DNA of 64,000 bases from a virus (Duplodnaviria; Heunggongvirae; Uroviricota; Caudoviricetes), in IMG/VR virus record IMGVR_UViG_3300033993_001993. One strand, 5' to 3'. Position numbers and translations under genes: made by a program. A model generated the notes under the pieces. That model was not told the origin of the DNA, did not search any database, and saw only the letters and a list, made by a program, of their open reading frames with translations. Below, one piece after another: positions 1,738-39,711 of the stretch; the first letter of the stretch is position 1, and each line of letters opens with the position of its first letter.

Positions 1738-1787
1738 ATCTTTTTTTATTATAACTATAGGAAAAAATTAATTTTAATAAATTGTTT

Positions 1788-3360: not shown

Positions 3361-3908
3361 ATCTCCACGTAATACACTAAAACCTTTATTCCCGTTCTCG
3401 GATATATTAATGAGTTTAAACAATCTTGTATAACTCCACTTACTTCACCCTGTATCTCAAATCCAACCTCATCATCATTCAAAGCATCTTCTAAAGATAA
3501 GTGTCTACCATCCATAGTGGTAACAGATCCCCCTTCTGATACTTGACACTCTATTTTATAAACATCATCTTTTACGTAAACATTAGTGATTCTCCAATCA
3601 AAGTCATACCCACCAACAAACATTTCAGGAAAATCTTTTGTTGAGAAGTTATTAATTGATAAGTTATCAATTATTTCCATAGTTTTTTCTTCTCCGCCAA
3701 TGTAATCATTGAAGAACTCACCATAGTCCCTAATATCCGTCCATCTATCTATACCGAAATAACCTAAGATATCTTCATCAAAAGTCGGGTAACCTTTCTC
3801 TTTAGTTTGTTTATCCCACATTTTTTTAAGAATTTCGGATTTACGAGTGGGTTTGTTTGAACTCTCAATCACCATTCTCATTTGAGATTCCGTGATAACT
3901 ATTTTCAT
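3357..3908 (-). CDS. Hypothetical protein, N-terminal MKIVITESQ family
   Basis: 183-aa ORF starting MKIVITESQMRMVIESS; ATGA overlap with the upstream gene. Confidence 0.4.
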   Translation of the reverse strand: MKIVITESQMRMVIESSNKPTRKSEILKKMWDKQTKEKGYPTFDEDILGYFGIDRWTDIRDYGEFFNDYIGGEEKTMEIIDNLSINNFSTKDFPEMFVGGYDFDWRITNVYVKDDVYKIECQVSEGGSVTTMDGRHLSLEDALNDDEVGFEIQGEVSGVIQDCLNSLIYPRTGIKVLVYYVEI

Positions 3909-6629: not shown

Positions 6630-6910
6630 TATTTTCTTATTTTTGATGCACTTTCTAAAAAGTGTTTTATTGTTTTATTTGTTGATCCGATGTTATCGTC
6701 ATTAATTAATTCAGGGTTACTAAATTCCACCTCTTCAAGTAGTTTATGTTTAAGATATTTCTTATTACCTTCAATCTTAAACGTCCTACCATCCTCTATA
6801 AATAAACTTGGTAATTCAGAATTATAAATCCCATCAGGTGGGAACACTATACTATGGTGTCTCGCCAAATGATAAAACAAATCTTTATTTATTTGTGGAT
6901 TTTTTTCCAT
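6629..6910 (-). CDS. Hypothetical protein
   Basis: First in-frame ATG is at 6908-6910 (MEKNPQ...); the ORF-track start at 6925 is TTG. Confidence 0.3.
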   Translation of the reverse strand: MEKNPQINKDLFYHLARHHSIVFPPDGIYNSELPSLFIEDGRTFKIEGNKKYLKHKLLEEVEFSNPELINDDNIGSTNKTIKHFLESASKIRK

Positions 6911-6946
6911 ATTATAATTATACAATATTTATAACTAAAAGGGAAG

Positions 6947-7696
6947 ATGGCTTTAGATCAAAAAAAATACAAGATTTTTACAAAACAAATATACAATCAT
7001 ATAATTGACGATCAAGGTGAAAACTATCTTTTTAATCCTTCAAAAATTTACAAAGAAATCACTGATGATGAATTTCTACAGATTTTAACCCAAAGAGTTA
7101 CAAACACAGATAAAATTAGATTATCATTTATGGTTTATCTATATGATTTGGAGGGTGATGTTGATCAATCGGTTAACGATGTTTTAAATCAATTTACTAT
7201 TATTGAAAGTATGATCTTTAGTGAATTGGGTAGTGGATATTTTACGTGTCCCGAATGTCAGGGTAATGGAGCGTTTGATTGCAATGAATGTGACACTAAT
7301 GGTGAATCCACTTGTGATCTTTGTGATGGATCGGGTGAAGATGAAACTGGTGATCCTTGTTATGGATGTAATGGTGATGGGGGAGTTACTTGCGGTAATT
7401 GTTCTGGAAGTGGGTTAGAAAATTGTGATGAATGTGGAGGTTCAGGTGAGGTTGAGAGTGAAGATTTGTTTTGGGAAAAGAAACTTCTAATAACGTACAC
7501 TTTAAATGATGAATTAAGAAATTTAAAGTTAGGGACTTCATTAAGTAGTGAAGAAAGTGACGAAATAGAGAGTCCACCATCAATTAATCAAATTAAAATA
7601 TTAGATTCTTACGTTCCTTACAACGATCCTTTTCAAGAATATGATATAGATGAAAAAAACCCAGATTCTATCTGGGTTGTTATTTCAGTTCGTTAA
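6947..7696 (+). CDS. DnaJ-type zinc-finger (CxxCxGxG repeat) protein
   Basis: Six consecutive CxxCxGxG units (CPECQGNG, CNECDTNG, CDLCDGSG, CYGCNGDG, CGNCSGSG, CDECGGSG) as in the DnaJ cysteine-rich domain. No J-domain HPD motif seen. Confidence 0.5.
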   Translation: MALDQKKYKIFTKQIYNHIIDDQGENYLFNPSKIYKEITDDEFLQILTQRVTNTDKIRLSFMVYLYDLEGDVDQSVNDVLNQFTIIESMIFSELGSGYFTCPECQGNGAFDCNECDTNGESTCDLCDGSGEDETGDPCYGCNGDGGVTCGNCSGSGLENCDECGGSGEVESEDLFWEKKLLITYTLNDELRNLKLGTSLSSEESDEIESPPSINQIKILDSYVPYNDPFQEYDIDEKNPDSIWVVISVR

Positions 7697-8175
7697 GATA
7701 AAAACTTTAATTTATACATTGTTGAATAAATCAGTTCTTGTACCGTATCAATTTGATTTTGGATATAACTATCTTCAACGTCGTTTCTATTTTTATCAAT
7801 AACACTTAATAATTGTGTAAAGTAACTTAATACTTGTTTACCGCTTTTATAACCACTCATCTTATATGATTTATAGTTAGTCATCAAACCATACTTTCCT
7901 TGGTAAGATTCAACCAAACCGTCAGTTAATGCGTCAATACCTTCATAGTATTTTTGAAGTGCCTTGTGTTCAGAATATGATTTTGTTCCTAAATGAAAAA
8001 CGTGTACTTGAGTTTGTGATTGCAATAAATGACATATCATTTCACAAAAACCTTCATTAGTGTTAGATTCTTTTGAATCCTCTTCTTTGTCCTCTGTTTT
8101 ATCTTCTTCTTGTTCTAAAAGATTTCTTCTTAACAATTCAACCTTTAACTGCTCACTTAAATCAAATTCACTCAT
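7693..8175 (-). CDS. Hypothetical protein, possibly ferritin-like/Dps fold
   Basis: HVFHLGTKSYSEHKALQKYYEGIDALTDGLVE loosely resembles the Dps di-iron helix pattern (H..H.G..F...H....Y......D.L.E). Weak. Confidence 0.25.
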   Translation of the reverse strand: MSEFDLSEQLKVELLRRNLLEQEEDKTEDKEEDSKESNTNEGFCEMICHLLQSQTQVHVFHLGTKSYSEHKALQKYYEGIDALTDGLVESYQGKYGLMTNYKSYKMSGYKSGKQVLSYFTQLLSVIDKNRNDVEDSYIQNQIDTVQELIYSTMYKLKFLS

Positions 8176-8205
8176 AATATTTTTATTATAAATATCATCG
8201 ACTTT

Positions 8206-8703
8206 CTATTTGTTAATTAAATCTTTATCGGCAATCAAAACAAGGTCATCATTAAAGGATGGGTAAATTTCTTTTATTTTACCATATATCTCAGGATAGT
8301 CAGACCAAACTTTCACCCCCTCGTTCTCAGGACTATAATCATTATCAACTAAGTACTGAACAATAGTATTGTCTTCTATAGTGATAAATCCGTGGGCGAA
8401 GTATCTTGGTACATATATCTCATCACCTTCGTTCATCTCAAAGAAAAATACTTTATTATAATCTTCAGATACCCATCTAAGATCCACCACAAAGTCCAAT
8501 ATCTTACCACCAATGACTTTTATTAGTTTGGCTTGAGCGTACTCGTCCTTTTGAAAGTGCAACCCCCTTAACGTAAATTTCTGGGGGTTGACACTTACAT
8601 TACTTTGAACCCAATTCTTATCTAACTTAGTAAGATCTAACGGACTAAAGGTTCCTCTTTTATCCATAAAAATTCTATTCTCAACTAAATGTGCCTTTTC
8701 CAT
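8206..8703 (-). CDS. rmlC: dTDP-4-dehydrorhamnose 3,5-epimerase-like cupin (RmlC family)
   Basis: RGLHFQ...YAQAKLIKVIGGKILDFVVDLR and YFAHGF match the RmlC signature blocks. Confidence 0.7.
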   Translation of the reverse strand: MEKAHLVENRIFMDKRGTFSPLDLTKLDKNWVQSNVSVNPQKFTLRGLHFQKDEYAQAKLIKVIGGKILDFVVDLRWVSEDYNKVFFFEMNEGDEIYVPRYFAHGFITIEDNTIVQYLVDNDYSPENEGVKVWSDYPEIYGKIKEIYPSFNDDLVLIADKDLINK

Positions 8704-9395
8704 TATAAAAATTTAATTTCATTTGTTATTGGATTCCAATCAATATTCCACGGCAAGTGAGAATAAAGGTATCGTTCGTCCAACACAGACGCATTGAAGT
8801 AGTGTGTGTGTCCGTCGTAATAATGTCCGTGACCACTATGGATGTGACCACAGATGTGAATCTTCGGTTTGATTTGTTTGATTCGTTCTGCAAGTAATTC
8901 GCAACCTAAGTGTTGTCCTCGACGACCTTCAACGTCATCCAAGAATCCCCAAGCTGGTCCGTGAGTAATTAAGATGTCTATCCCTTCAGGAATCATATCC
9001 CAAACCGCTTTCAACTCTTCACCATTTTTAGGTAAGTTAAACGCCCAATTATAGAACTCAGGTTGCCAAGGAGATCCCCAAATTTTAACTTCAGGTCCAT
9101 CACCATCTTGTATTGTAATTAACTCGTCTTGTACGTAATCAATGTGTTTGTATTCAGTGAGAATACCTTTGATTTTCTCTACGTTGTTTTGGAAACCCCA
9201 ATCGTGGTTACCAGCAATGAATACTTTGTGTCCGTAGTCGTCAAGTTTATTATACCAAGACGCAAACTCACGGATCTCGTGTTCGTAACCCATAGAACTT
9301 AAATCACCAGCGTGTAACAACAAATCACCACCAGGTAAATCACCTGTAATGTGTTTGTGTTTTCCGTGAGTATCCGATATAATTGTTAATTTCAT
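8703..9395 (-). CDS. Calcineurin-like metallophosphoesterase
   Basis: ISDTHGKHK, HAGDL, IAGNHD and HICGHIH metal-binding motifs. Confidence 0.8.
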   Translation of the reverse strand: MKLTIISDTHGKHKHITGDLPGGDLLLHAGDLSSMGYEHEIREFASWYNKLDDYGHKVFIAGNHDWGFQNNVEKIKGILTEYKHIDYVQDELITIQDGDGPEVKIWGSPWQPEFYNWAFNLPKNGEELKAVWDMIPEGIDILITHGPAWGFLDDVEGRRGQHLGCELLAERIKQIKPKIHICGHIHSGHGHYYDGHTHYFNASVLDERYLYSHLPWNIDWNPITNEIKFL

Positions 9396-9763
9396 ATTTT
9401 AATCCATTTATTGTCGTGATTATACTTAAAAGATCCAATGTGTTCTTTATCCCAAAAATTTGGTTCTATCAAAGATAGGAAATTTTTTTGGTTGTTACCA
9501 ACATAAAGGTGGTAAATTTTCCCAATTACTGGTTCAAAAGTAAATTTTGATTGATAAACCAAATCATTCCATTGGTATTCATCAACAAGTTTCTGATACT
9601 CTTTTTTTAATTCCTCAAATCTATCAATAAATTGTTTATTAAGATCCATTATTCTGGGTTCTTTCCAACTTTGGATGTCGGTCAGTTTAATAGATGGCGC
9701 CCCAACATTACTACCATATGGTAATAGTCCAGGATTATCTGCTACGTTGTCGGGTTTTTCCAT
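9392..9763 (-). CDS. Hypothetical protein
   Basis: 123-aa ORF overlapping its neighbour by 4 nt. Confidence 0.3.
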   Translation of the reverse strand: MEKPDNVADNPGLLPYGSNVGAPSIKLTDIQSWKEPRIMDLNKQFIDRFEELKKEYQKLVDEYQWNDLVYQSKFTFEPVIGKIYHLYVGNNQKNFLSLIEPNFWDKEHIGSFKYNHDNKWIKI

Positions 9764-9811
9764 CTTCTATAGTTTGTTATTAATGATACCACATTAACAC
9801 CACCAAATCAA

Positions 9812-10264
9812 CTATGGTTTTGTATAAAATTGTATTTTGTTTTTGGCGTTTTCAATCAACCATTTATCAACGTAAGGTATTTTTTTTAAAAACTCCAATT
9901 CGTGTTGGTACGCAATGACTTCCTCCACATTTGGGTTCAAATTAAGGTTAGTTTTTAGGAGGTATAAATGTAATGATTCGTGAACGAGGATTGCCGAAAT
10001 GTTATAGATATTACCATTATTCATTTCTTTGGATGGTATTGTGATAACACTATCTGATTCTGTGGTTGAGAATCCCCCATTCCAAAAAGCAACTACCTTA
10101 CACGTTTCCATAATAAGGTAGTACTTTTCTTTATCGTATTTTTGTATTGTATCTAACGCTTGTTCGACTTTCCCTTTCCATCCATCACCAACATCCGTTA
10201 TTTTTATTTGCCCAAATATTGGTGTGAAAGTGAACATAACCAGTAAGAGTGTCCATATTCTCAC
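9812..10264 (-). CDS. Secreted protein with an HExxH motif (putative zinc metallopeptidase)
   Basis: N-terminal signal peptide MRIWTLLLVMFTFTPIFGQ; ILVHESLHLYL contains HExxH. Confidence 0.3.
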   Translation of the reverse strand: MRIWTLLLVMFTFTPIFGQIKITDVGDGWKGKVEQALDTIQKYDKEKYYLIMETCKVVAFWNGGFSTTESDSVITIPSKEMNNGNIYNISAILVHESLHLYLLKTNLNLNPNVEEVIAYQHELEFLKKIPYVDKWLIENAKNKIQFYTKP

Positions 10265-10716
10265 GGTAATTTAATTGCTGCGTCGTGTATTGCTTTCTTC
10301 AATGCTGAAGACAATGTCATCTTCTCAAAAGGTATCGATCCCTCTTGAACTTCAATAATAATTGCTCTAATCTCTGTGTCTGACTCACCCATCCCTTGGT
10401 AACAATTACCTTTATAATGAAGTTTAATTCCAACTTGAGTTATTGTATTTGTTTTTTCAACACCAACAACTCTTATGGTTGTCTTAGGTAAACCAAAATA
10501 GTAAATTTCAACATCTATTTTATCCCCTTGTTCTGATAAACAATATTTTTCAGATAACTCATCCTCAACAATTTGTTTAACCCCAAAACGAATATCTCTA
10601 TTACCAAGTTCTCTTAATTTCGCAGTCGAGTATACAGAATCAACAAATACACATTGTTGAGCTTTAGCGATGTTACCAAGTAGTAACATACCAAGTAGTA
10701 AGATTATATTTTTCAT
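10261..10716 (-). CDS. Secreted hypothetical protein
   Basis: Signal peptide MKNIILLLGMLLLGNIAKAQ. Confidence 0.35.
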   Translation of the reverse strand: MKNIILLLGMLLLGNIAKAQQCVFVDSVYSTAKLRELGNRDIRFGVKQIVEDELSEKYCLSEQGDKIDVEIYYFGLPKTTIRVVGVEKTNTITQVGIKLHYKGNCYQGMGESDTEIRAIIIEVQEGSIPFEKMTLSSALKKAIHDAAIKLP

Positions 10717-11306
10717 AATTTAATTTGGTATTTAGTAAAGTCGGTTGTTGATGGTTTCTCGTTTTTGAAATAGTATTTCTCGATTTTGTTTCCGTATTTA
10801 ATTGTCTTATAATATCCGTCAGGTACCGTAGCTCCTGTTGGTAACACAATTGATTTGGTTGAATAAACACAACGAATTTCAACGATCACACTTTTATTTG
10901 TCTTCGCCAATTCTCTTTCTCTAACCTCTAACAATCTCCAAGTAGTTCTATTTAAGTTCTCTTGTTGTAGTGAACAATTTAAGTATGTGAATGTTTTGAA
11001 TAGTAATTCTTTAGTACAATTGAAATCTGCCGCGGGCGCTAAGTGCCCTTTATCATATGGGTTGTTCGCATAATCCTTATCGTCAGATGTCAGTATCGAA
11101 TCACAAGTATAGAAATCCATACCTTTTCTTGGTGCGGATCCATTGGGACATTGTACCGTATAACGAATGAACTTTGGTTGTTGTAATTTTTCAGAATAAA
11201 CAATCTCAAACATATCTGTTTTAATGTAGACGGAATCTCTTAACGCTTTCTGACTGAAAACAAATAATGGTAATGTTAATAATAATGTTAGTAATAAATT
11301 TTTCAT
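10713..11306 (-). CDS. Secreted DNA/RNA non-specific endonuclease (Serratia NucA / EndoG His-Me finger family)
   Basis: Signal peptide MKNLLLTLLLTLPLFVFSQ; the DKGHLAPAADF active-site block (DRGH motif) and downstream QQENLNRTTWRLLE match the Endonuclease_NS family. Confidence 0.65.
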   Translation of the reverse strand: MKNLLLTLLLTLPLFVFSQKALRDSVYIKTDMFEIVYSEKLQQPKFIRYTVQCPNGSAPRKGMDFYTCDSILTSDDKDYANNPYDKGHLAPAADFNCTKELLFKTFTYLNCSLQQENLNRTTWRLLEVRERELAKTNKSVIVEIRCVYSTKSIVLPTGATVPDGYYKTIKYGNKIEKYYFKNEKPSTTDFTKYQIKL

Positions 11307-11307
11307 T

Positions 11308-12276
11308 TTAATATGATACGGTTGTTTTATACCCAGGAGCGATCAGATAATAGTTTTGTGATCCCCCACTTACAGGTGAGTTTATTGTTATTGATGACAC
11401 ACCAGGTATTGTTGATCTTAGATCTGATGTATTTGTCGTTAATGTTGTGTATTGTGCGGTTGTATATAATCTGGATGGACTCATATTAATCCAACCCCCT
11501 AATAAACCATATCGTCTAAGATTAATATAATTTTGATCGGCAACGTTTATTCTCCCATCATAGTTCACATCATATCTGTGGTAATGAATACTTTTAATTG
11601 GTGTAACACCTAATATTAATTTAGAAACTTCTACCATATCCGTAGTTTGTAGTGTAGTTACCGGTGTTGGAGCATCATATTGTATGTACCACTCAACCGC
11701 AGGACTTGTCGGTTGTGAAAAGTTATAGTACCCCGATGAGTTAGTGTAAACCGTTTGATGTAACACCCAAGGGGTAAAAGTCACAATATATTCAAACTCC
11801 AAAACATATGGTAATGATGTGTTAGGTAAATCATTCCATCTACCTCCTCCGACGAATTGAATGTAGTCCTCGTTACCGGCATTGTTTGGTTCTCCACTAT
11901 TCCAATACGACCAAGAATAAGGTTCACCCGTAACCCATCTCCACACACCTTCATTGACCTCATCGGTTAATCCGATCCACCCATTTGGCCAAAGGCTGAA
12001 TAGGAAATTGTTTTCGGCTAATGATGTTGAGGTAACTAAATGTCCCCCCATATTAATACAGGCTTGTCTTGCGTCCGTCCAAGTCATTGACCCTGTTGAT
12101 CTATAATATGAGTGCCCATTAAAGTTTTGTTGATTGGTAAATCCATTCATTACCGGTGTTGTTCTTTTATACAACTTAACAGGTACATTAACCGCGCCTG
12201 TTCCATCCGCATTATAAATGTATCCCGAATATGTAAAGGTTTGAGTAAACCCCATAAACGGAATCACAAATAACAT
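11308..12276 (-). CDS. Secreted C-type lectin domain protein (EPN/WND carbohydrate-binding motifs)
   Basis: WIGLTDEVNEGVWRWVTGEPYSWSYWNSGEPNNAGNEDYIQFVGGGRWNDLPN is a canonical CTLD long-loop signature. Start moved to the internal Met, which gives signal peptide MLFVIPFMGFTQ and removes the overlap with the next gene. Confidence 0.65.
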   Translation of the reverse strand: MLFVIPFMGFTQTFTYSGYIYNADGTGAVNVPVKLYKRTTPVMNGFTNQQNFNGHSYYRSTGSMTWTDARQACINMGGHLVTSTSLAENNFLFSLWPNGWIGLTDEVNEGVWRWVTGEPYSWSYWNSGEPNNAGNEDYIQFVGGGRWNDLPNTSLPYVLEFEYIVTFTPWVLHQTVYTNSSGYYNFSQPTSPAVEWYIQYDAPTPVTTLQTTDMVEVSKLILGVTPIKSIHYHRYDVNYDGRINVADQNYINLRRYGLLGGWINMSPSRLYTTAQYTTLTTNTSDLRSTIPGVSSITINSPVSGGSQNYYLIAPGYKTTVSY

Positions 12277-12284
12277 TATTGTTA

Positions 12285-13901
12285 TTATTGTCCTACTAAC
12301 ATTCTTGCTCCACACGTTACCGTATAATTTAAAGCACTTGTTTTTAAATCCCAAGCACCACCTGCGTTTATGTTGAATTTGAACTTCTTTGTAATTTTAA
12401 TATTTGTACCAATACTTGGTAACATCACATAAGGAGATTTCAATACAACATCATTATAGTAACTAACATACGGAGCGTAAACAAATAAATTCATTAATTT
12501 AACATCTATTCGTTTACCTATCCTCATATCGTAAGTCCCCCCAACAATTAATGCAGTCCCCAAAAATGATTCTCTATAAACATTTCCATAAGATACCGTC
12601 CCCATATAAAGAAGTTTAAGAGATTTAGGTTTCTTAAACGTAAACATTTGTCCTATTGCTACCGTACCGTATAATGACTTATTACCTTCAAACCCAATGG
12701 TTAGTGTTCCAGAACCAATCACAATTGATTTAGGTCTAATAAAAGCATAGAACGCAGTTATATTAGGACCTCTAAGGGCTGAAGTATAGTCACCTAAAAC
12801 CCCCGAACTTCTTTTACCATCCCATCTCATTGCAGTATACCCACCTGTTACTTTTAACCCTGTATTCACTTCAGAATCTCTAAAGTTAAACCCAACAAAG
12901 TCACCACTAGCGACTATTGTGGGTTTACCACCTTCTTTACTAGTTGGGGTTGCCTTTACCGTTGTGGTTGCACCACCTGTTATATTTGTTTGTCCACCTT
13001 CTTCTTTTCCTGTTTCAGGAGTTTTATTTTCCTCAGGTTTATTACTTCCCGAACCAGTCCCGTTATTCCCTGCCCCACCATTAGACCCATTCCCAGGCTC
13101 ACTACTACTATTTCCATTTCCACTTGTTGTTTGATTGTTTATTGGTGTTTCAGTTGTTTGACCACCACCATTTGGTTCTGTTGTTTGAGTTCCCCCATTT
13201 ATAGTCGGGTTAGTCGATTGATTTCCAGTTTCATTTGATCCACCTTGAGTTGTAGTTCCTCCTGCTTGTGTTGGATTTTGAGTTCCAACATTTTGACTAG
13301 TGGTTCCATTTCCTCCGTTTGTACCTCCTTCATTTGTTCCAGAAGTGGTTGTACCTCCTTGAGTAGAGTTACCTGTTCCATTCGTTTGATTTTGAGTATT
13401 ATTGGTTGTGGTATTATTATTTGTAGTATTATTTCCACTTCCATTTTGGGATTTATTCCCCTTCTTATCGTTACCCTTTGAATTTCCATTCCCTGTATTA
13501 TTAATAGTAGTTACAGACCCACCTATTAAATTTGTGGATCCCCCCGCTAAATCTGAGATTGTGGATAATGAATTAAGAATTCCGATTACGTTTAATGCTG
13601 TTCCTTGGGTTATGTTAATTGCCGTACCCAAACCTATTATTTCAGAGCAAGGACTATTTGTTCCATATTGTGAAAATATGTTATTAGTCCAAGATTCAAA
13701 TGTCCCGTTTGTAAAATCGTTTTGACTAAACGATCCCGTTTCACCGTAGTATGAAACTATTACGTTTCCATTTATCGGTATGACTATAGTTTTAAGATTT
13801 CCCGTACAGGGATCAGAGTAACTATAATTGTAAGATTGCGCATTCAGGTTAAAGAACCCAAACACGCAATAAAACAATAATATGAATACATTTAGTTTCA
13901 A
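12285..13901 (-). CDS. Secreted protein with a roughly 230-aa N/T/G/S-rich low-complexity region and a C-terminal beta-barrel-like domain
   Basis: Signal peptide; GNGNSKGNDKKGNKSQNGSGNNTTNNNTTTNNTQNQTNGTGNSTQGG... tract; the C-terminal 200 aa have alternating hydrophobic beta-strand-like character. Confidence 0.4.
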   Translation of the reverse strand: MKLNVFILLFYCVFGFFNLNAQSYNYSYSDPCTGNLKTIVIPINGNVIVSYYGETGSFSQNDFTNGTFESWTNNIFSQYGTNSPCSEIIGLGTAINITQGTALNVIGILNSLSTISDLAGGSTNLIGGSVTTINNTGNGNSKGNDKKGNKSQNGSGNNTTNNNTTTNNTQNQTNGTGNSTQGGTTTSGTNEGGTNGGNGTTSQNVGTQNPTQAGGTTTQGGSNETGNQSTNPTINGGTQTTEPNGGGQTTETPINNQTTSGNGNSSSEPGNGSNGGAGNNGTGSGSNKPEENKTPETGKEEGGQTNITGGATTTVKATPTSKEGGKPTIVASGDFVGFNFRDSEVNTGLKVTGGYTAMRWDGKRSSGVLGDYTSALRGPNITAFYAFIRPKSIVIGSGTLTIGFEGNKSLYGTVAIGQMFTFKKPKSLKLLYMGTVSYGNVYRESFLGTALIVGGTYDMRIGKRIDVKLMNLFVYAPYVSYYNDVVLKSPYVMLPSIGTNIKITKKFKFNINAGGAWDLKTSALNYTVTCGARMLVGQ

Positions 13902-14641
13902 TTTTTAAATACTCCTTTTGTGATAAGTCGACTCACCACTCTTGAAGATGCTGTCTCTAACGCCTTCTTTGTTGTTATACCAATAGTTGATTGGTTAAAT
14001 TTAACATCATCTGAGATGTCCCCCAATATTGTTGAGGTCTTTACCGTACTTGCCTCACCCAATCCTGATCCAACGATCACTTGACTTGTCTCAGCATCTA
14101 CGAATTTAATTTGTAATCCTAATCGTGTTGTTTGTGTTGTTGTCTGTTGTCCGTTAACTTTAACAACCTCATCCTCCGATACACTGAAGTCATATACCTC
14201 AATGTATACAAAGTATTTTGCTAAGATTACATTTCCTTTTACATCAATCTTATTAACTGAAATTCCTTTATCAGAAGCTTTGTCCTGAGCAATCATTCGT
14301 TGTTTGATGTCTTCTTTTTCTTCGGTAAAAACAAATCTACCCGTATACTCTAAATACTCAATCACAATGTTTGTTACACCTAAACCAACTCGTTTGTCTT
14401 TAAGTTCAGGATATAACTCATACAACTCCTCATTAATACCAATCTTTAATAATTGGATGGGAACTTGTATTGTATCAGTATAATCTGACACATCATTGAT
14501 AGATTGCTTCTTCTCAAATTCAGCTTGATATTGTTCAGTTTTCACAGAACCAATACCCCCACTGGTTTGTGGGGGCTGAGCTTGTGTTGTTTTACAACTG
14601 AATAAACTAAATATTGATAGTATGAATACTACTTTTTTCAT
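13898..14641 (-). CDS. Lipoprotein (signal peptide plus Cys lipobox)
   Basis: MKKVVFILSIFSLFSCKTT N-terminus. Confidence 0.4.
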   Translation of the reverse strand: MKKVVFILSIFSLFSCKTTQAQPPQTSGGIGSVKTEQYQAEFEKKQSINDVSDYTDTIQVPIQLLKIGINEELYELYPELKDKRVGLGVTNIVIEYLEYTGRFVFTEEKEDIKQRMIAQDKASDKGISVNKIDVKGNVILAKYFVYIEVYDFSVSEDEVVKVNGQQTTTQTTRLGLQIKFVDAETSQVIVGSGLGEASTVKTSTILGDISDDVKFNQSTIGITTKKALETASSRVVSRLITKGVFKN

Positions 14642-14925
14642 TATCCGATTTCTTCCTCTTCTTCTTTAGTTGCAGTTTTACCCGATAAGTACTTATCAAC
14701 AGATGCAATACCAAAAGAACCTAAAGTAATCCACAAAAATCCGTCATAGATGAATTGGTTAATTGGCATTTCTTGTCCGTGAAAACCAGTCCAAATATCC
14801 ACACCAAGACACACCACCATCATTAAAAATGATCCAAATCCTACTATTGATTTTTCGTTTATATCATTTTGATCCATAAACATTCTTACTAAGAATGATT
14901 TCTTTTTTGTTTTCTTTTCTGCCAT
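14641..14925 (-). CDS. Small two-TM membrane protein (holin-like candidate)
   Basis: 94 aa with two hydrophobic segments (IVGFGSFLMMVVCLGV, FLWITLGSFGIASV) and a charged C-terminus. Confidence 0.3.
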   Translation of the reverse strand: MAEKKTKKKSFLVRMFMDQNDINEKSIVGFGSFLMMVVCLGVDIWTGFHGQEMPINQFIYDGFLWITLGSFGIASVDKYLSGKTATKEEEEEIG

Positions 14926-14952
14926 TTTTGTTTTATTTATTTGTTTATTAAT

Positions 14953-15285
14953 TTACCAAGATTCTTCTTCAACCTTTTTTGGTTTTTCAGGTTGTGCTTG
15001 TGTTGTTGACGGTTTTTCAACTACTCGTTCAATTACGTGAGTTCCTCCACCATTTTCAACTTTTTGTTTATTCTCTTGATTTTGTTGAACGTTTACAATA
15101 ACAGGTTGACTTGCCGGTGCTACTTGTTCAGTTTTAGTTTCCTCAGCGGATTCATCTCCACCTCCGAATAATAATGTACTCACCCATACTCCACCACCAG
15201 CAATTACGGTAGTTAAAGTCCCGATGATTGTTTTTTTCAACCCTGACCAAGTTCCGTCATTGGTCTCTTGCGCTTCTTCTGACAT
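14953..15285 (-). CDS. Small single-TM membrane protein
   Basis: TM segment IIGTLTTVIAGGGVWVSTLLFGG followed by a charged tail. Confidence 0.3.
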   Translation of the reverse strand: MSEEAQETNDGTWSGLKKTIIGTLTTVIAGGGVWVSTLLFGGGDESAEETKTEQVAPASQPVIVNVQQNQENKQKVENGGGTHVIERVVEKPSTTQAQPEKPKKVEEESW

Positions 15286-15309
15286 TTTTGTTTTTATTTG
15301 TTTGTTTAT

Positions 15310-17220
15310 TTATTGTTTAATTATTCTTTCGAATGATGGAACTCCGTTCTCAACACTAAGTTTAACTATGTAAACCCCTGGTTCTAACTCACCTAAGTTT
15401 TTAGTGTAGTTATAAATCCCATCAGGTATTTGTGTGTCTAATATTGTAACTAACTTTCTACCAACTAAATCATATACCGATAGTGTTGCGTTTGTTGTCT
15501 CCTCAACTTTGAATGTGATTGTAACTTCGTCTTGATATGGATTAGGATATACTTCCATATTGTTATCGTTCAAGATGTTTCCACCTTCCATTTTTAATAC
15601 CTGAAGGATTCCGTTAGTTGGTGTTAAAGACAAATCACTTGAGTATGTAGTTCCAGCAAATTTTCTATTAGTGTACAAAGGACTTGCATCCCATAAGTTC
15701 TGTGGTTGTAACGCCAAGAATTGTATTATAACAACTTGATTACCATCTTTTAATGTGTTGTCATTATTTGTAGGATCAAACCCTCCCCATTCAATCTCGT
15801 TGTCGTTAGGGTTAACGTATGAAATCCATTTCATTGCCTCGGCTGATGATGTAATACCTTTAAATTGTAATAAGGTGTCATTGTATTTCAAACCAAATTG
15901 TAATGAACTTAATTCAATTCCATTTGTTATAACACTCACAGGAAGTTCAACTAAGTTACCAGCCTGAACTGAGATATTAGGAACATTTATTTCAATAGAT
16001 TGTGTTGGGAAATCGTATTCCACTTTAGTGTCAATAACATTGTATATTTGATTTTCTAAACCAGGTATTGGACCAACCACTACCTCAATAGGGGTTATAC
16101 GAGCCATATTATATCCTGTCCCATTTGCATCACCCGGTACCATCACATAATAAACAACTGAATCAGGTTGACCCGGTAGGATATCAAATGTAAAGTTAGT
16201 TACACCAGCAATTGATGAGGTGTAGTTAGTTGACGAACCATTAATTGTCGTATATTCCGTTGACGTAAAGAATTTAACATCTTTTGTATTGTTAGGCCAA
16301 GATGTAAATCTTCCTGAAACTCTACCAAACACACCCCAAACGTCTGAGATTGTTGTGTTGTTAGATCCGTTAACATCTGCAGTATAGTAATCAAACCCTG
16401 TCATTGTTCCGTTACCCAAAACCCATTGGTTTATTAATTGAGCATCTGTTGTTGATACAACATTACCAACACCCATAGTATCTCCTTTAACAGCTAAACG
16501 AACGTCCCAATATGTCGTATCCAATGGAACCGAAATATTAAAGTCTCCGTTATTATCCGTAACATAAACAGAATGTTGTGTCCAAGTTGATCCACCTGAT
16601 GGTTTTTTCTCTAACGCTAAAGTTAATGTTTTAGCTCCTGTACCAGTTACGTTTGTAAATGTTCCGTGGTAATCAAAGTTTACAGGTGTAAACACACCAC
16701 CATAGTTATGAACACTCAAAGTTGTATCCATACCATCTTGTTTTGCGGCGTATGGTGTAAACGTTTGAACTCCTGTCCAAGTTAAGTTACTTATTGTTGA
16801 TAAGTTATTAAATGTTGATGCTGGAGCGTGAGTAAATGTGATTAAGAATTTTTCACCGTTTGGTATAGTGTACGTAGAACTTGGACCAGTGTAACTTAAT
16901 GTCATTGTAATGTAACCATTCGCAGTGTTAGTCACATATTGAAGATCTAAGTTTGTTGTTGATCCTATCAAAGATACCGTTGCATTTGTAAATGCTACCT
17001 TATCATAAAATACTCTAAGCTGAACCCCAGCGAATTTTGTTAGGGTTGTATTTTGTAGTGTAATTTTGGCGGTTGTTGACCCTTGTGCTGAAGTCCCAAT
17101 CTGATATTGAGACGCAATGATACCCCACAAACCATTAGATGGTGCTGAAGGTACTTGTGATAACCCTATAAAAGGTAGTGATAATAACATTGTAAGGATT
17201 AACCCCTTAATTAATTTCAT
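15310..17220 (-). CDS. Large secreted/cell-surface protein with a T9SS C-terminal sorting domain
   Basis: N-terminal signal peptide; C-terminal about 80 aa (VYPNPYQDEVTITFKV...SVYDLVGRKLVTILD...GVYIVKLSVENG) match the Por secretion system CTD (TIGR04183-like). Confidence 0.6.
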   Translation of the reverse strand: MKLIKGLILTMLLSLPFIGLSQVPSAPSNGLWGIIASQYQIGTSAQGSTTAKITLQNTTLTKFAGVQLRVFYDKVAFTNATVSLIGSTTNLDLQYVTNTANGYITMTLSYTGPSSTYTIPNGEKFLITFTHAPASTFNNLSTISNLTWTGVQTFTPYAAKQDGMDTTLSVHNYGGVFTPVNFDYHGTFTNVTGTGAKTLTLALEKKPSGGSTWTQHSVYVTDNNGDFNISVPLDTTYWDVRLAVKGDTMGVGNVVSTTDAQLINQWVLGNGTMTGFDYYTADVNGSNNTTISDVWGVFGRVSGRFTSWPNNTKDVKFFTSTEYTTINGSSTNYTSSIAGVTNFTFDILPGQPDSVVYYVMVPGDANGTGYNMARITPIEVVVGPIPGLENQIYNVIDTKVEYDFPTQSIEINVPNISVQAGNLVELPVSVITNGIELSSLQFGLKYNDTLLQFKGITSSAEAMKWISYVNPNDNEIEWGGFDPTNNDNTLKDGNQVVIIQFLALQPQNLWDASPLYTNRKFAGTTYSSDLSLTPTNGILQVLKMEGGNILNDNNMEVYPNPYQDEVTITFKVEETTNATLSVYDLVGRKLVTILDTQIPDGIYNYTKNLGELEPGVYIVKLSVENGVPSFERIIKQ

Positions 17221-17376
17221 TTTCGTAGTTTTTTAGTTTTAGTGTTTAAAATTTTATCTATTTGTGTTAAGACCATTTTACTAATAAGTATCTCAATACC
17301 ATTAAACCGACAACTTTTTTACTATTAAATCTTTACTTTATAAATCGATTCACTATTTATAGAAAAATCAAATATT

Positions 17377-18204
17377 ATGATACTAAAAAATGGATCCAAA
17401 GGAGAGGATGTAAAAAAACTCCAAGTAAAATTAGGTGTGGAAGCGATAGGAACGTTCGGTCCTAAAACTGAAGCCGCGGTTAAAGCTTGGCAAACAGCTA
17501 ACGGATTAAAAGCTGACGGAATTGTTGGTGACGCTACTTGGTCTAAAATGTTTGGATCAAAACCTGAAGTAATTAAGGAAGATGTTGTTATCCCAAGTGG
17601 TGGCTCATTGAATCTTGAGAAATTGAAGGGTCATATTCCTGAGTCAGTTATTGCACAGATCCCTGACACTGCAAAGAAATTTAACATCACAAACAACTTA
17701 AGATTGGCTCACTTCTTGGCACAATGTGGTCACGAATCAGCTGGTTTCAAAGCGGTTAGTGAGAACTTGAATTACTCTGCGGATGGATTAAAAAAGATTT
17801 TTGGTAAGTACTTCCCTGGTAACTTAAACGAATCTTACGCTCGTCAACCTGAAAAGATTGCTGCTCGTGTTTACGCATCGAGAATGGGTAATGGTGATGA
17901 ATCAACTAAAGAAGGTTTTAAATTCAGAGGTCGTGGTTACATTCAATTAACAGGTAAATCAAACTACACAAACTTTACTAAGTTCATTGGTGAGGATTGT
18001 GTTGCAAATCCTGATTTAGTTGCAACAAAATACCCTTTAGCTTCAGCCGCTTTCTTCTTTGACTCAAATAAACTTTGGTCAATCTGTGATAAAGGTGCTG
18101 ATGATGCTACGGTAACGGCAGTAACTAAAAGAGTGAATGGTGGGACAATCGGATTACCTGATCGTATCAAACACTTTAAAGAATATTACAACTTACTTAA
18201 GTAA
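17377..18204 (+). CDS. Endolysin: peptidoglycan-binding domain + glycoside hydrolase family 19
   Basis: N-terminal PG_binding_1-like repeat (DVKKLQVKLG...GPKTEAAVKAWQ); GH19 catalytic blocks HFLAQCGHESAGF and FRGRGYIQLTGKSNYTNF. Confidence 0.85.
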   Translation: MILKNGSKGEDVKKLQVKLGVEAIGTFGPKTEAAVKAWQTANGLKADGIVGDATWSKMFGSKPEVIKEDVVIPSGGSLNLEKLKGHIPESVIAQIPDTAKKFNITNNLRLAHFLAQCGHESAGFKAVSENLNYSADGLKKIFGKYFPGNLNESYARQPEKIAARVYASRMGNGDESTKEGFKFRGRGYIQLTGKSNYTNFTKFIGEDCVANPDLVATKYPLASAAFFFDSNKLWSICDKGADDATVTAVTKRVNGGTIGLPDRIKHFKEYYNLLK

Positions 18205-18213
18205 AACACAAAA

Positions 18214-18238
18214 CCCCTCTTAACGGAGGGGTTTTTTT
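18214..18238. terminator. Bidirectional rho-independent terminator (CCCCTC-loop-GAGGGG + T7)
   Basis: Perfect 6-bp GC stem followed by TTTTTTT on + and a T-rich tract on -; lies between the convergent endolysin and the 18237 gene. Confidence 0.6.
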
Positions 18239-18491
18239 ATGATATAATTTTTATCTCACTTGTTGTTTCAATAACGACTCTCGCCCCACAACTCAATATT
18301 GGTTTGGTATCACAACCAGAACCTCCATATATGACCTTACTTGGTCCGAGTATTTCCACCTCATTACAATAGGTATTAGTTTTACCTTCTTTAATGGTTA
18401 TGACAGGTAGATCAGTTCCTTTAGTTTTGTTGGACCTGACGTGGTGCTGATTAACGTGTATTCGTATTACTTTTGGTCGTGCCATTCCCAA
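18237..18491 (-). CDS. Hypothetical protein
   Basis: 84-aa ORF. Confidence 0.3.
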   Translation of the reverse strand: MGMARPKVIRIHVNQHHVRSNKTKGTDLPVITIKEGKTNTYCNEVEILGPSKVIYGGSGCDTKPILSCGARVVIETTSEIKIIS

Positions 18492-18766
18492 CCTAACAAT
18501 AATTTAGAAAAAAATCTGTGAATAGGATTTGGTTTCTTTTCAAAGTATATTTGGAAAGATCTTCCGATCTTATACGATCCAACTTCTTTTCTTCTTTTAA
18601 ATGAGTTTGGTAAATGGATTTCACCAGATCTCATAACCATATCATCAACAACTGATCCTTCTGTATTTTTATTTTCAGTTTTTTTCTTCCTTGGTTTGTA
18701 AGTTCTTTTTTTTGTGGGTGACGGCTTTTCTTTACTCACGGTTTCTTTTAATATTTCTTTTTCCAT
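18467..18766 (-). CDS. Hypothetical basic (Lys/Arg-rich) protein
   Basis: KKRTYKPRKKKTENKN tract. Confidence 0.3.
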   Translation of the reverse strand: MEKEILKETVSKEKPSPTKKRTYKPRKKKTENKNTEGSVVDDMVMRSGEIHLPNSFKRRKEVGSYKIGRSFQIYFEKKPNPIHRFFSKLLLGWEWHDQK

Positions 18767-18803: not shown

Positions 18804-19529
18804 TTACTTTACACCCATTACTTCTTTTTTATAGTATTCTTCAAACCCATCTAAGTAGTTCGTAATACTTTTGCTGTTATCTACACCAATAACCTCATCA
18901 ATTAACCCAAAAGATAAAGCCTCATCTGAAGTATACCATCTATCTCTTGATGAGAAATCTAAAACTTCTTGGAATGTTTTCCCACAATTCTCAGCTAATA
19001 TCTTAAATAAGATGTAGTTGTATTTCTCACCTTCCATTTGGTCAATACGAGTGTCTTGGATATTTCCTCGTGTTCCGTGACTAACTTGGTGGGTCATTAC
19101 TTTTGAGTGGATAAGTGACGATCTTTTACCTTTTGTCCCTGATGATAATAGAACAGATCCCATTGACGCACACATACCCAAGTTTGTTGTAACGATATCT
19201 GAACTAACGTAGTTCATTAAGTCCACAATACCAAGTCCACACATAACAGATCCACCAGGACTATTAATGTAAAGGGTGATGTCTTTCTTTTCAACCGAAT
19301 CTAAAAACAATAATTGTGCTTGGACGATGTCTGACATATGTTGGTCTACCGGACCTGACAACCAAAGTATTCTATCTCTCATTAATCTTGAGAAGATGTC
19401 CATTTGAGTTACTCTCATTTCTCTCTCTTCCAAAATATATGGTGTTAATCCATTCTCAAACTGATCCAACGCCAGTGAACTAATTCCTTCGCTCTTTGCG
19501 AAACTTCTAAACTCTTTTCCGTAATCCAT
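18804..19529 (-). CDS. clpP: ClpP-family serine protease (probable prohead/scaffold protease)
   Basis: LYINSPGGSVMCGLGIVDLMNYV, CASMGSVLL and MTHQ blocks align with the ClpP catalytic Ser/His region. Confidence 0.75.
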   Translation of the reverse strand: MDYGKEFRSFAKSEGISSLALDQFENGLTPYILEEREMRVTQMDIFSRLMRDRILWLSGPVDQHMSDIVQAQLLFLDSVEKKDITLYINSPGGSVMCGLGIVDLMNYVSSDIVTTNLGMCASMGSVLLSSGTKGKRSSLIHSKVMTHQVSHGTRGNIQDTRIDQMEGEKYNYILFKILAENCGKTFQEVLDFSSRDRWYTSDEALSFGLIDEVIGVDNSKSITNYLDGFEEYYKKEVMGVK

Positions 19530-39640: not shown

Positions 39641-39688
39641 AAATTTGTTTTTTAGTTAACTATAAACAAATATAAATAATATATCAAT

Positions 39689-39711
39689 AAAAAACCCTCC
39701 TTTTGGGAGGG
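39689..39711 (-). terminator. Rho-independent terminator (CCCTCC-tttt-GGAGGG + T6)
   Basis: Immediately downstream of the TonB-dependent receptor stop. Confidence 0.6.

Follow-up and report, generated by a model that had tools for sequence, protein, structure and literature searches.

A conserved module of exported proteins surrounds a C-type lectin in a large Flavobacterium virus

The closest described counterpart of the locus analysed here belongs to Flavobacterium phage vB_FspM_immuto (Immutovirus; NC_055915), a cultured lytic myovirus whose host is Flavobacterium sp. LMO8. Its genes gp012-gp019 encode, as our locus does, a nuclease, a lectin, a cohesin protein, a transmembrane (TM) protein, a CsgG-fold protein, a barrel protein and a short paralog. 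Annotation of this module stays at the domain level ('nuclease', 'lectin C-type domain-containing', 'cohesin domain-containing', all else hypothetical), and we found no functional study of it in the literature. Phage-encoded T9SS cargo is also known from 'Cryophage', a Bacteroidota phage that encodes type A T9SS-domain proteins presumed to use the host secretion system; that cargo consists of variable enzymes (endoglucanase, GH39 and a PA14 protein) in flexible islands (Bellas et al. 2020, PMC7468147). Signal-peptide-bearing nucleases of the Endonuclease_NS family occur in Campylobacter CJIE elements (nucA/dns) and in Klebsiella jumbo phages ('periplasmic DNA/RNA non-specific endonuclease').

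We analysed a 64,000-nucleotide stretch, hereafter the window, of the Caudoviricetes record IMGVR_UViG_3300033993_001993. Its phage context comprises ThyA, RNA ligase, ClpP, Acb3 and an endolysin, and the genomes of its relatives reach 292 kb. A sequence-only reading had described five minus-strand ORFs (9812-10264, 10261-10716, 10713-11306, 11308-12354 and 12285-13901) as independent secreted effectors. Neighbouring ORFs overlap by 1-4 nt at their starts and stops or are separated by gaps of 1-5 nt, and the five genes are probably translationally coupled because these starts and stops overlap or nearly abut. Comparison with 64 viral loci that carry the lectin showed that the five genes make up the downstream half of a larger conserved module of tightly packed genes in common orientation. 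Its members are the T9SS/cohesin cargo, a type II membrane protein, a CsgG-fold lipoprotein, the barrel protein, the lectin, a short CsgG-like paralog and an HExxH zincin, each with a Bacteroidota-type signal peptide or membrane anchor (Table 1). The first four form a kernel whose order is identical in 41 loci and most of which falls outside positions 9812-13901, so the notion of five independent effectors did not hold. Within the 64 loci, the short paralog is present in 59, the type II membrane protein in 47, the zincin in 39 and the nuclease in 20. Two pairs of module proteins are paralogous: the T9SS protein with the lectin protein, and the CsgG-fold lipoprotein with the short paralog.

Table 1. 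Features of the module and its surroundings in the window, and the basis of each call.
Feature	Coordinates	Strand	Basis
Small zincin-like metallopeptidase, exported, 150 aa, HExxH with downstream EE	9812..10264	-	invariant residues
Short CsgG-like paralog, exported, 151 aa, no lipobox	10261..10716	-	hhalign
Serratia/EndoG-type non-specific nuclease, exported, 197 aa	10713..11306	-	PF01223
Lectin protein	11308..12315	-	PF00059
Outer-membrane barrel protein, 538 aa	12285..13901	-	kernel gene 4
CsgG-fold outer-membrane lipoprotein, 247 aa, lipobox LFSC, Cys16	13898..14641	-	kernel gene 3
Small 2-TM protein, 94 aa, highly charged C-terminus, holin-like	14641..14925	-	sequence
Type II membrane protein, 110 aa	14953..15285	-	sequence; kernel gene 2
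T9SS cargo/scaffold-like protein, 636 aa	15310..17220	-	kernel gene 1 in 41 loci
Endolysin (PG_binding_1 + GH19), context, outside module	17377..18204	+ (divergent)	phrog_181 E=1.1e-65; PF01471, PF00182

The proposal that all five proteins carry signal peptides was confirmed. Each begins with a hydrophobic signal stretch, after which a small residue precedes Gln (FG↓Q, KA↓Q, FS↓Q, FT↓Q and NA↓Q), the pattern that signal peptidase I substrates of Bacteroidetes follow under the Q-rule (PMC5837995); Q-rule proteins have precedent in Bacteroidota phages (PMC10367356). Among relatives from the 64 viral contigs, the feature is kept in 35 of 38 HExxH proteins, all 58 homologs of the second protein, 19 of 20 nucleases, 55 of 57 lectins and 40 of 50 barrel proteins, and no member of the adjacent control families of cytoplasmic proteins (phosphoesterase and endolysin) has it. 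The run of signal peptides extends beyond the five genes to the CsgG-fold lipoprotein and the T9SS protein. With about 15 exported proteins among about 95 window genes, a rough estimate puts the chance of at least six consecutive exported proteins at about 1e-3. Q-rule signal peptides and the T9SS domain point to Bacteroidota as the host phylum, and the cultured relative grows on a Flavobacterium. When the host is diderm, Sec export by a signal peptide alone takes a protein to the periplasm. Profile searches found no T9SS domain or other outer-membrane export signal in the five proteins, and a T9SS C-terminal sorting domain is present only in the 636-aa protein. Because passage across the outer membrane can be demonstrated for that protein alone, the other module proteins are taken to be periplasmic by default, and the extracellular location suggested earlier was not supported.

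The T9SS protein opens with a Q-rule signal peptide and an N-terminal domain, followed by a beta-sandwich with a degenerate dockerin-like loop, a cohesin domain (PF00963, E=6.3e-7, 30.1 bits against a cut-off of 24.1) and a type A sorting domain (Por_Secre_tail PF18962, E=9.4e-11, 42.3 bits against a cut-off of 27; TIGR04183, E=1.7e-13). Its residues 213-363 have a paralogous counterpart in residues 171-316 of the lectin. In the immuto clade this scaffold gene is divided into one gene for a signal peptide and the N-half, and a separate gene for a signal peptide, the cohesin and the C-terminal sorting domain. The N-half thus has its own signal peptide and lacks a sorting domain, a fission that fits non-covalent docking on the cohesin.

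The CsgG-fold lipoprotein is the most conserved gene product of the block, and its identical sequence recurs in 68 blocks of the assembly collection. Its model is of moderate confidence (pLDDT 62), with a folded part of 230 aa; the window protein has no Pfam CsgG match, and the lipid-anchor Cys is missing in 16 of 47 homologs, about a third. Judged from the hhalign comparison of the two families (probability 96.4%, E=1.3e-9), the second of the five genes, which had been left uncharacterised, is its short paralog. Although the fold is that of curli CsgG and of the lipoproteins of LptDE and PelBC, the window has no curli (CsgA/B/E/F), Lpt or Pel partners. It further differs from these systems in that the barrel has only 12 strands, lipidation is not conserved, Pfam membership is lacking and the element is viral.

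The barrel protein, as its alignment shows, comprises a signal peptide, a conserved N-domain in which a conserved pair of Cys stands 53 residues apart, a disordered linker of variable length and the C-terminal barrel. AlphaFold (AF2) models the C-terminus as a 12-strand beta-barrel (pLDDT 80-93), and many homologs terminate in ...GGKLxF, which resembles the OMP beta-signal. The protein has no Pfam, PHROG or NCBIfam match, and none of its 251 metagenomic homologs is annotated. The low-complexity tract and beta-barrel-like C-terminus seen in the sequence-only reading are both there, but the tract is about 205 aa long (residues 121-325: G47, T46, N39, S18, Q13) rather than 230. The general O-glycosylation sequon of Bacteroidota, D-[ST]-[AILVMT], does not occur in residues 121-325, and the O-glycosylation suggested for this tract finds no support in that motif.

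The lectin protein carries a signal peptide, a CarboxypepD_reg/SdrD-B-like beta-sandwich with an inserted canonical C-type lectin domain (CTLD), a dockerin-like Ca2+ loop and a C-terminal region. Its start is most likely GTG 12315 (ATG in relative L001) or ATG 12276, rather than TTG 12354. PF00059 matches the window protein with E=2.6e-14 and all 21 non-redundant homologs (best 1e-17), and EPN (129-131) and WND (147-149) are invariant among these, so the identification of a C-type lectin with both motifs stands. The supposed rarity of such lectins in viruses of prokaryotes was also supported, as a search of 50,697 phage records returned only the four Flavobacterium phage immuto records. The protein matches the CTLDs of DC-SIGN and the mannose receptor with E 1e-18 to 1e-21, its PDB matches are DC-SIGN and MRC2, and it shares with these animal proteins a full CTLD with WIGL, EPN and WND. 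In contrast to them, it has a single CTLD inside a beta-sandwich, and it has lost three of the four canonical Cys, which leaves one Cys and none of the canonical disulfides. Its nearest non-phage relatives are giant multi-CTLD proteins of archaeal and bacterial MAGs (40-48% identity). With neither a template repeat nor a reverse transcriptase in the window, the lectin is not of the DGR-diversified CLec/FGS type known from phages. Loop residues D236, N238, D240 and D247 are likewise invariant in the 21 homologs, and only one of the two dockerin Ca loops survives. Weak matches among these homologs are to Dockerin_1 (10 of 21, best 0.0014, below cut-off), CarboxypepD_reg (7 of 21) and SdrD_B (6 of 21). 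The sole above-threshold sign of a docking pair in the module is the cohesin, the dockerin match being below the Pfam threshold. Because the binding face is almost invariant, the ligand is probably a conserved rather than a variable glycan; it could be the host envelope core, peptidoglycan or the protein O-glycan.

The lectin and the CsgG-fold protein of immuto are 55-66% identical to those of the window, and its nuclease is 58% identical. The immuto genome is smaller (160 kb, compared with up to 292 kb), its lectin and nuclease genes lie ahead of the kernel, its scaffold gene is in two parts, and its module is beside replication genes with the endolysin 8 kb away. No HExxH gene was detected in the 18.7-kb neighbourhood of the immuto module, and the module itself contains no holin-like gene. 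The window's cargo also differs from that of Cryophage, being conserved, non-enzymatic and cohesin-bearing, and standing in fixed order with the CsgG-fold protein and an outer-membrane barrel.

Our preferred reading, held tentatively and at somewhat less than an even chance, is that the module installs a phage-made envelope or surface complex that displays a Ca-dependent lectin in the infected cell. Host Sec and signal peptidases would carry out all module proteins, and BAM would insert the barrel. Lipoproteins of the CsgG/LptE/PelC fold pair with outer-membrane partners, as in LptE-LptD and PelC-PelB. On the strength of these known pairs, we infer an outer-membrane complex of CsgG-fold lipoprotein, short paralog and barrel, which the type II membrane protein may anchor to the inner membrane. 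The cohesin protein would be exported through the host T9SS, and the lectin would dock on it through the dockerin-like loop, as would the free N-half in clades with a split scaffold. The infected cell, or material freed from it, would then bear a Ca2+-dependent glycan binder of mannose/GlcNAc type. The zincin and, where present, the nuclease would be accessory enzymes, either periplasmic or released. Against this reading, the lectin may act in the periplasm.

An unlikely alternative, though the most probable of the rivals, is that the module carries out the outer-membrane step of lysis, in the functional role of spanins or disruptins. The type II protein and the outer-membrane lipoprotein and barrel would join the membranes, the zincin would cut envelope tethers, and the lectin would bind peptidoglycan glycan strands. 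Peptidoglycan is a ligand of RegIII-group C-type lectins, which are of the EPN type. The earlier calls of two small membrane proteins and a divergent endolysin were correct. The type II protein has a single TM helix between an acidic N-terminus in the cytoplasm and a periplasmic tail rich in P, Q, E and K, and gave no above-noise match to Pfam, PHROG or NCBIfam profiles. Its gene directly precedes the CsgG-fold gene wherever present (47 of 64 loci), and i-spanin and o-spanin genes come in this order too, with an inner-membrane type II protein first and an outer-membrane lipoprotein second. The 2-TM protein has no Pfam or PHROG match, and a holin role may be proposed from its sequence features; its gene is within the module or adjacent to it, interrupts the kernel in the window's clade only, and a homolog adjoins the endolysin in several other clades. 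In 21 of 41 loci no more than 2.5 kb separates the endolysin from the module, so the suspected link with lysis genes is supported, and this position in about half of the loci is compatible with a lysis aid as the module's purpose. However, the lipoprotein has a folded 230-aa CsgG fold, unlike a short proline-rich o-spanin, and often lacks its anchor Cys. The endolysin is absent from the neighbourhood in 16 of 41 loci (immuto and 15 others), the immuto module adjoins DnaB and RNR genes, and the T9SS-exported cohesin protein has no obvious lysis role.

Ranked after the lysis reading, and improbable in our view, is the original proposal that nuclease, lectin and protease are independent secreted effectors that bind extracellular glycans, degrade eDNA, biofilm or competitor nucleic acid, and aid egress. 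The nuclease is indeed of the Serratia type: PF01223 matches with E=3.1e-21 (76.5 bits, cut-off 23), phrog_14168 is a nuclease family, the protein aligns to EndoG and NucA, and catalytic H88, N110 and E127 do not vary among 16 homologs. Its motif, DKGHLAPAADF at residues 85-95, has DKGH as a variant of DRGH. Compared with the CJIE and Klebsiella enzymes, which are examples of exported non-specific nucleases from other phages and prophages, it is short, has DKGH instead of DRGH and shares 28-35% identity over 50-68% of the length. The zincin keeps H95, E96, H99, E114 and E115 without exception among 22 homologs, and its family matches are below Pfam cut-offs (SprT-like in 6 of 22, best 4.5e-5; Tox-MPTase2; DA1-like). 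In favour of this reading, the nuclease and lectin are intact and exported; other findings speak against it. The nuclease is an accessory member of varying position, missing from 44 of 64 loci in which the remaining module stays, and the surrounding module is mostly membrane-embedded parts; the zincin gene itself is sometimes upstream of the kernel on the opposite strand. None of the five has an outer-membrane export signal.

Less probable still is an outer-membrane export route of the phage's own, in which a CsgG-like channel and/or the 12-strand barrel would pass unfolded lectin, zincin and nuclease, which would then fold outside with Ca2+. The top structural matches of the models are peptide-secretion channels (CsgG, FapF, NalP and Hbp), and the best Foldseek matches of the barrel, all 12-stranded, are NalP, FapF, Hbp, NanC, EstA and EspP. 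The order of signal peptide, N-terminal domain, long linker and C-terminal 12-strand barrel is that of type Va autotransporters and FapF. The single-Cys lectin would suit unfolded transport, the lectin and dockerin-like loop are Ca-dependent folds, and the barrel gene immediately precedes the lectin gene in the window and most loci. Yet the barrel matches the small porins NanC and KdgM equally well (TM 0.62-0.66, target-normalised), and its model has no predicted plug or pore-spanning helix ahead of the barrel. The linker is very long and of low complexity, the Cys pair of the N-domain would be unfavourable for autotransport, and there is no autotransporter Pfam match. Curli and Fap partner genes are absent, and the CsgG fold also serves the non-channel proteins LptE, PelC and FlgT. 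Finally, phage virions are commonly decorated with lectin-like and Ig-like domains (PMC7824862), but lectin-bearing decoration or fibre proteins are a very improbable explanation here, since assembly of virions in the cytoplasm cannot be reconciled with conserved cleavable signal peptides, a lipobox, a T9SS domain and an outer-membrane barrel, and no PHROG structural match was found.

The virus is a large Flavobacterium virus in the lineage of large lytic Immutovirus-like phages that are common in lakes. The preferred reading, a lectin-displaying envelope complex, suggests that it re-equips the surface of the infected cell with exported proteins. The purpose would most likely be to occupy or mask host envelope glycans, excluding other phages or shielding progeny, or to mediate adhesion.

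The block at 9812-13901 comprises five co-oriented minus-strand ORFs whose stops and starts overlap or nearly touch. The same close packing extends upstream across the genes for a CsgG-fold lipoprotein, a protein with two transmembrane (TM) helices, a type II membrane protein and a T9SS/cohesin protein, and downstream into three cytoplasmic genes (DUF2452, metallophosphoesterase and an RmlC-like epimerase). The five genes are half of a larger conserved module, in which closely spaced genes for exported and membrane proteins are shared within a single lineage of Flavobacterium phages. Past the cytoplasmic genes lies a hairpin that is likely a bidirectional terminator closing the minus-strand unit that contains the block. 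Matches in a sigma-70 promoter scan were at chance level. The Bacteroidota promoter-like motif TTTG-N17-21-TAnnTTTG occurs 12 times in the window against 3.9 expected, a count reached by none of 100 shuffles, and no copy lies directly upstream of position 17220, that is, of the module. The A-rich 29-nt leaders at 14925-14953 and 15286-15314 are nearly identical (86%), and each stands before the start codon of one of the small membrane-protein genes. We found no significant repeats within 9000-18500.

Features of the module and of other regions of the window
Feature	Coordinates	Strand	Remarks
GT2 glycosyltransferase; weak GT9-like match	991-2345		PF00535, E=9e-15 (GT2)
Bidirectional hairpin	7658-7678		Perfect 9-bp stem, T-runs on both strands
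dTDP-4-dehydrorhamnose 3,5-epimerase-like cupin	8206-8703		E=6.7e-35
Metallophosphoesterase	8703-9395
HExxH protein	9812-10264	-
Short paralog of CsgG-fold lipoprotein	10261-10716	-
Nuclease	10713-11306	-
Lectin	11308-12315 (or 12276)	-
Barrel protein	12285-13901	-
CsgG-fold lipoprotein	13898-14641
Two-TM protein	14641-14925
Type II membrane protein	14953-15285
T9SS/cohesin protein	15310-17220
Endolysin	17377-18204	+	GH19
ClpP protease	18804-19529		E=1.7e-53
CBASS inhibitor Acb3 homolog	20457-21149		PF25187, E=1.6e-30
Thymidylate synthase	21282-22529		415 aa
Tandem paralogs	24034-25227, 25231-26493		397 and 420 aa
GIY-YIG homing endonuclease-like	27975-28703		Pfam match E=6e-7
SprB-repeat protein	38645-39640	-
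TonB-dependent receptor	39719-42280	-	Full, Plug and barrel
Protein with T9SS sorting domain	42286-43848	-
GIY-YIG homing endonuclease-like	59750-60337		N-terminal similarity only

We scanned all ORFs of the window with a simple hydrophobicity measure and detected N-terminal signal sequences in the five genes, in the adjoining lipoprotein gene and in the T9SS/cohesin gene; most remaining window genes lack one. At every predicted cleavage site Gln comes directly after a small residue, in line with the "Q-rule" of Bacteroidetes signal peptidase I substrates (PMC5837995), which was previously noted for Porphyromonas phage proteins (PMC10367356). Across related loci, signal peptides are kept within each module family and are missing from the flanking cytoplasmic families. 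The scan and this family-wise conservation bear out the sequence-only reading of five consecutive genes with signal peptides. A second exported cluster, all of whose members have Q-rule signal peptides, lies at 38645-43848 on the minus strand and includes a TonB-dependent receptor, which is unusual for a phage.

The phage DNA has a GC content of about 33% and encodes thymidylate synthase, RNA ligase, ClpP, an Acb3 homolog and a GH19 endolysin. With the lectin protein as query, 64 IMG/VR loci were recovered; identities ranged from 48 to 87%, and the contigs reached 292 kb. Among deposited phages, the lectin or the adjacent lipoprotein was found only in Flavobacterium phage vB_FspM_immuto (four records), a lytic Baltic myovirus of 160 kb that infects Flavobacterium sp. 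LMO8; the suggestion that such lectins are rare in prokaryotic viruses is thus upheld. The immuto module genes are annotated "nuclease", "lectin C-type domain-containing protein", "cohesin domain-containing protein" or hypothetical, and our literature search returned no functional studies of immuto, of phage C-type lectins or cohesins, or of phage CsgG. At the nucleotide level the region matched the phage collection just once, at 8885-9214 within the metallophosphoesterase gene, where the 635-kb uncultured "megaphage" record LR745206.1 has a stretch of 74% identity.

Gene presence was scored by tblastn of all neighbouring proteins against the 64 loci, and gene order was analysed in the 41 loci with at least five core genes. 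All 41 share one kernel in identical order: T9SS/cohesin protein, type II membrane protein, CsgG-fold protein and barrel protein. The lectin and the 151-aa short paralog of the lipoprotein are always near this kernel, at shifting positions. The HExxH gene is present in 39 of the 64 loci, at times on the other strand, and the nuclease gene in only 20, at varying sites. The suggestion that the block could be part of a lysis region has positional backing in part of the lineage: in 21 of 41 loci the endolysin is no more than 2.5 kb away, and in 16 it is missing from the neighbourhood. The small two-TM protein, which has a charged tail, adjoins the endolysin in other clades and is therefore probably a holin.

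The CsgG-fold lipoprotein is encoded by the most conserved gene of the block. Its fold is that of CsgG, although the window protein had no match to the CsgG family PF03783 and only 4 of 26 relatives matched weakly (best E 8.5e-5). More than 4,800 relatives were found, many carrying the JGI label "CsgG". PDB sequence searches with profiles of the lipoprotein and of its short paralog, which is related to it with an hhalign probability of 96%, returned nothing meaningful, and none of the neighbouring genes matched the curli partner families csgE, csgF, csgA or csgB. The window protein has the lipobox LFSC (Cys16); the lipobox Cys is present in only 31 of 47 homologs, and the rest have an SPI/Q site. 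A scan of GTDB species genomes, with patterns that reach close relatives only, returned five loci, all on MAG contigs and none from an isolate, and within that reach identified no cellular source system. The identical lipoprotein sequence occurs in 68 blocks of the assembly collection, and three such contigs, from JGI and ENA metagenome samples, have the same gene order.

The barrel protein has a conserved N-domain (YxYSYxDPCT...SPC, with two conserved Cys), a linker rich in G/T/N/S/Q that differs in length and composition among relatives, and a conserved C-terminus of about 215 residues, the last of which is hydrophobic or aromatic in many relatives and resembles an OMP beta-signal. AlphaFold (AF2) models the C-terminus as 12 antiparallel strands (pLDDT 80-93) and the linker (residues 116-323) as disordered, with no helix beside strand 1. 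The predicted barrel agrees with the sequence-only reading of a low-complexity tract ahead of a beta-barrel-like C-terminus; the possible O-glycosylation of that tract found no support, as the linker lacks a D-[ST]-[AILVMT] sequon. The best Foldseek matches were the 12-strand barrels NalP, FapF, Hbp, NanC, EstA and EspP. With NalP, Hbp, EspP and EstA among them, the C-terminal barrel resembles that of type Va autotransporters, but the protein lacks both a match to the beta-domain profile and the pore-spanning alpha-helix before the barrel. It matched no sequence family, with no Pfam match at E<0.1, and all of the 251 relatives in the databases are metagenome proteins that carry no annotation.

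The T9SS/cohesin protein carries a type A sorting domain (TIGR04183, 50.3 bits against a cut-off of 23; PF18962, 42.3 against 27). Within the module it alone combines such a domain with a Sec signal peptide, a pairing found in none of the five block genes. A cohesin domain (PF00963) scored 30.1 bits against a cut-off of 24.1, and the immuto protein gp015 is annotated as a cohesin. We also considered a second cohesin in the N-terminal 155 residues, which neither BLASTP nor hhalign (probability 0.3%) supported. Phages of the immuto clade have two ORFs in place of this gene (6856-8680 of NC_055915), each with a Q-rule signal peptide; the N-half ORF lacks the sorting domain, and cohesin and sorting domain are confined to the second ORF. 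We found one report of phage-encoded T9SS cargo, where it is termed unique (PMC7468147).

The lectin protein matched PF00059 at 54.3 bits (cut-off 22.6, E=2.6e-14), all 21 homologs matched the family too, and solved animal C-type lectin domains (CTLDs) in the PDB matched it at E 1e-18 to 2.7e-21. The motifs E129-P130-N131, W147-N148-D149 and WIGL are invariant in 21 non-redundant homologs. The C-type lectin recognized from its EPN and WND motifs is thus borne out by its family profile, and Ca-dependent sugar binding is predicted. The whole protein has a single Cys (C73/74), so the two canonical CTLD disulfides (four Cys) are missing; in alignments to MRC2, the remaining Cys are replaced by Y, P/N and L. 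The domain surface is near-invariant among relatives that are only about 55% identical overall, which speaks for a conserved ligand and against a variable receptor glycan. Discussion of jumbo-phage lectins covers discoidin and concanavalin-like domains and the DGR-type FGS/CLec fold, the last of which was not found in these phages, and does not mention canonical CTLDs (PMC7824862). A DGR-diversified CLec/FGS variable protein was rejected here, as the window contains neither a second copy of the lectin gene nor an RT-like ORF. Outside phages, the closest CTLDs belong to giant prokaryotic multi-CTLD proteins from MAGs, and the domain was therefore probably acquired from a pool of environmental prokaryotes.

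The CTLD sits as an insertion within a CarboxypepD_reg/SdrD-B-like sandwich, and residues 171-316 of the lectin and 213-363 of the T9SS protein are paralogs. This common region holds a putative Ca-binding loop, D236-x-N-x-D-...-D247, whose ligand positions D236, N238, D240 and D247 do not vary within the lectin family; the first loop has degenerated save for D213. We defined a dockerin by two duplicated Ca-binding loop-helix segments and a profile match above threshold. The lectin scored 18.4 bits against Dockerin_1 (PF00404), below the cut-off of 22.9, with weak matches in 10 of 21 homologs, and EF-hand matches were also sub-threshold.

The nuclease matched PF01223 (76.5 bits, cut-off 23, E=3.1e-21) and the nuclease family phrog_14168 (E=8e-17), and it aligns through the active site with EndoG and NucA. 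The catalytic His of the DRGH motif (H88), the Mg-binding Asn (N110) and a downstream Glu (E127) align with EndoG and are invariant in 16 homologs. The DRGH Arg is replaced by Lys (DKGH), a variant found throughout the lineage, and some relatives have a second nuclease type that retains DRGH. With these residues intact, the Serratia-type active site seen earlier is confirmed and cleavage of DNA or RNA is predicted. Exported phage nucleases are already known. In the HExxH protein, H95, E96, H99, E114 and E115 are invariant in 22 of 22 homologs; its profile matches were all sub-threshold (SprT-like in 6 of 22, best 4.5e-5; Tox-MPTase2; DA1-like). The T9SS domain was the only NCBIfam match, PHROGs were informative only for the nuclease and the endolysin, and PADLOC defence models did not match any of nine proteins.

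Lipoproteins of the CsgG fold work with barrels or as barrels, as in LptE/LptD, PelC/PelB and CsgG. We therefore propose that the CsgG-fold lipoprotein, its paralog and the barrel protein would form an outer-membrane complex, which the type II membrane protein may tether. Host Sec, signal peptidases, BAM and T9SS would install the module proteins, with T9SS, a carrier of folded cargo, exporting the cohesin protein. The lectin may dock on the cohesin protein through its dockerin-like loop, and the free N-half in the split clades may do likewise. Lectin, zincin and nuclease have no outer-membrane export signal of their own and may act either in the periplasm or at the cell surface.

An alternative is that the block encodes independent secreted effectors, for instance for degrading eDNA. 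Nuclease and lectin are indeed intact and exported; but the nuclease is dispensable across the lineage, none of the five proteins has a T9SS domain and the kernel is membrane-embedded, so this model is weakened. Also weakened is a spanin-like lysis role. A type II inner-membrane protein next to an outer-membrane lipoprotein is the gene order of a two-component spanin, but this lipoprotein is a 230-aa globular CsgG-fold protein that is not lipidated in about one-third of homologs, and some loci have no endolysin nearby. We think it improbable that the virus encodes, in this module, a self-contained machinery for secretion and display at the outer membrane. In that reading the phage's lectin and enzymes would leave through a CsgG-like channel and a FapF/autotransporter-like barrel, and a cohesin/dockerin-like contact would build a cellulosome-style multivalent lectin complex on, or released from, infected Flavobacterium cells; if so, the sticking of infected cells to glycans, other cells or other phages would be altered. 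The export signals exclude, for practical purposes, that these proteins are virion components.

For the host-installed outer-membrane complex that we favour, the preferred purpose would be to occupy or mask host envelope glycans, for superinfection exclusion or progeny protection, by analogy with T5 Llp and Cor. Glycan-mediated adhesion or aggregation is our second preference, and aid to the outer-membrane step of lysis the third. Glycan-modifying genes, a glycosyltransferase and an epimerase-like cupin, lie near the block and are compatible with a surface-glycan theme.

Elsewhere in the window, the Acb3 homolog and ClpP lie just upstream of the lysis/envelope region. PHROG profile positions 29-307 of thymidylate synthase are spread over residues 1-414, which suggests an insertion of about 130 aa. 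The tandem paralogs have similar N-termini (M-x-NP-x-GNKLEK...) and no PHROGs match, and the first has no Pfam match either. Several proteins encoded at 2657-3908 and 49671-50909 share the N-terminal motif MK(I/V)IITE(S/N)Q and form a small paralogous family.

Domain-level GenBank annotation for immuto is already known; new here are the definition of the module, its CsgG fold and 12-strand barrel, the paralogies within it and the evidence from the split scaffold gene. Phage genes that alter the host surface come mostly from temperate phages of Proteobacteria and encode O-antigen modification, exclusion lipoproteins of the Llp/Cor/TraT type, or Lom/Bor. Unlike these, the present lineage of lytic Flavobacterium phages, abundant in fresh and brackish water, keeps an exported module of seven to nine genes, with a canonical C-type lectin alongside a CsgG-fold protein, a 12-strand outer-membrane barrel and a cohesin-bearing T9SS cargo. 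Lake Flavobacteria process algal polysaccharide, and the 68 blocks with an identical CsgG-fold protein suggest that it is ecologically relevant in lakes. Because immuto and Flavobacterium sp. LMO8 are in culture, they offer a tractable system for asking what the C-type lectin of a prokaryotic virus binds. If the module works as proposed, phages of Bacteroidota would co-opt Sec, BAM and T9SS together and rebuild the envelope of the infected cell.
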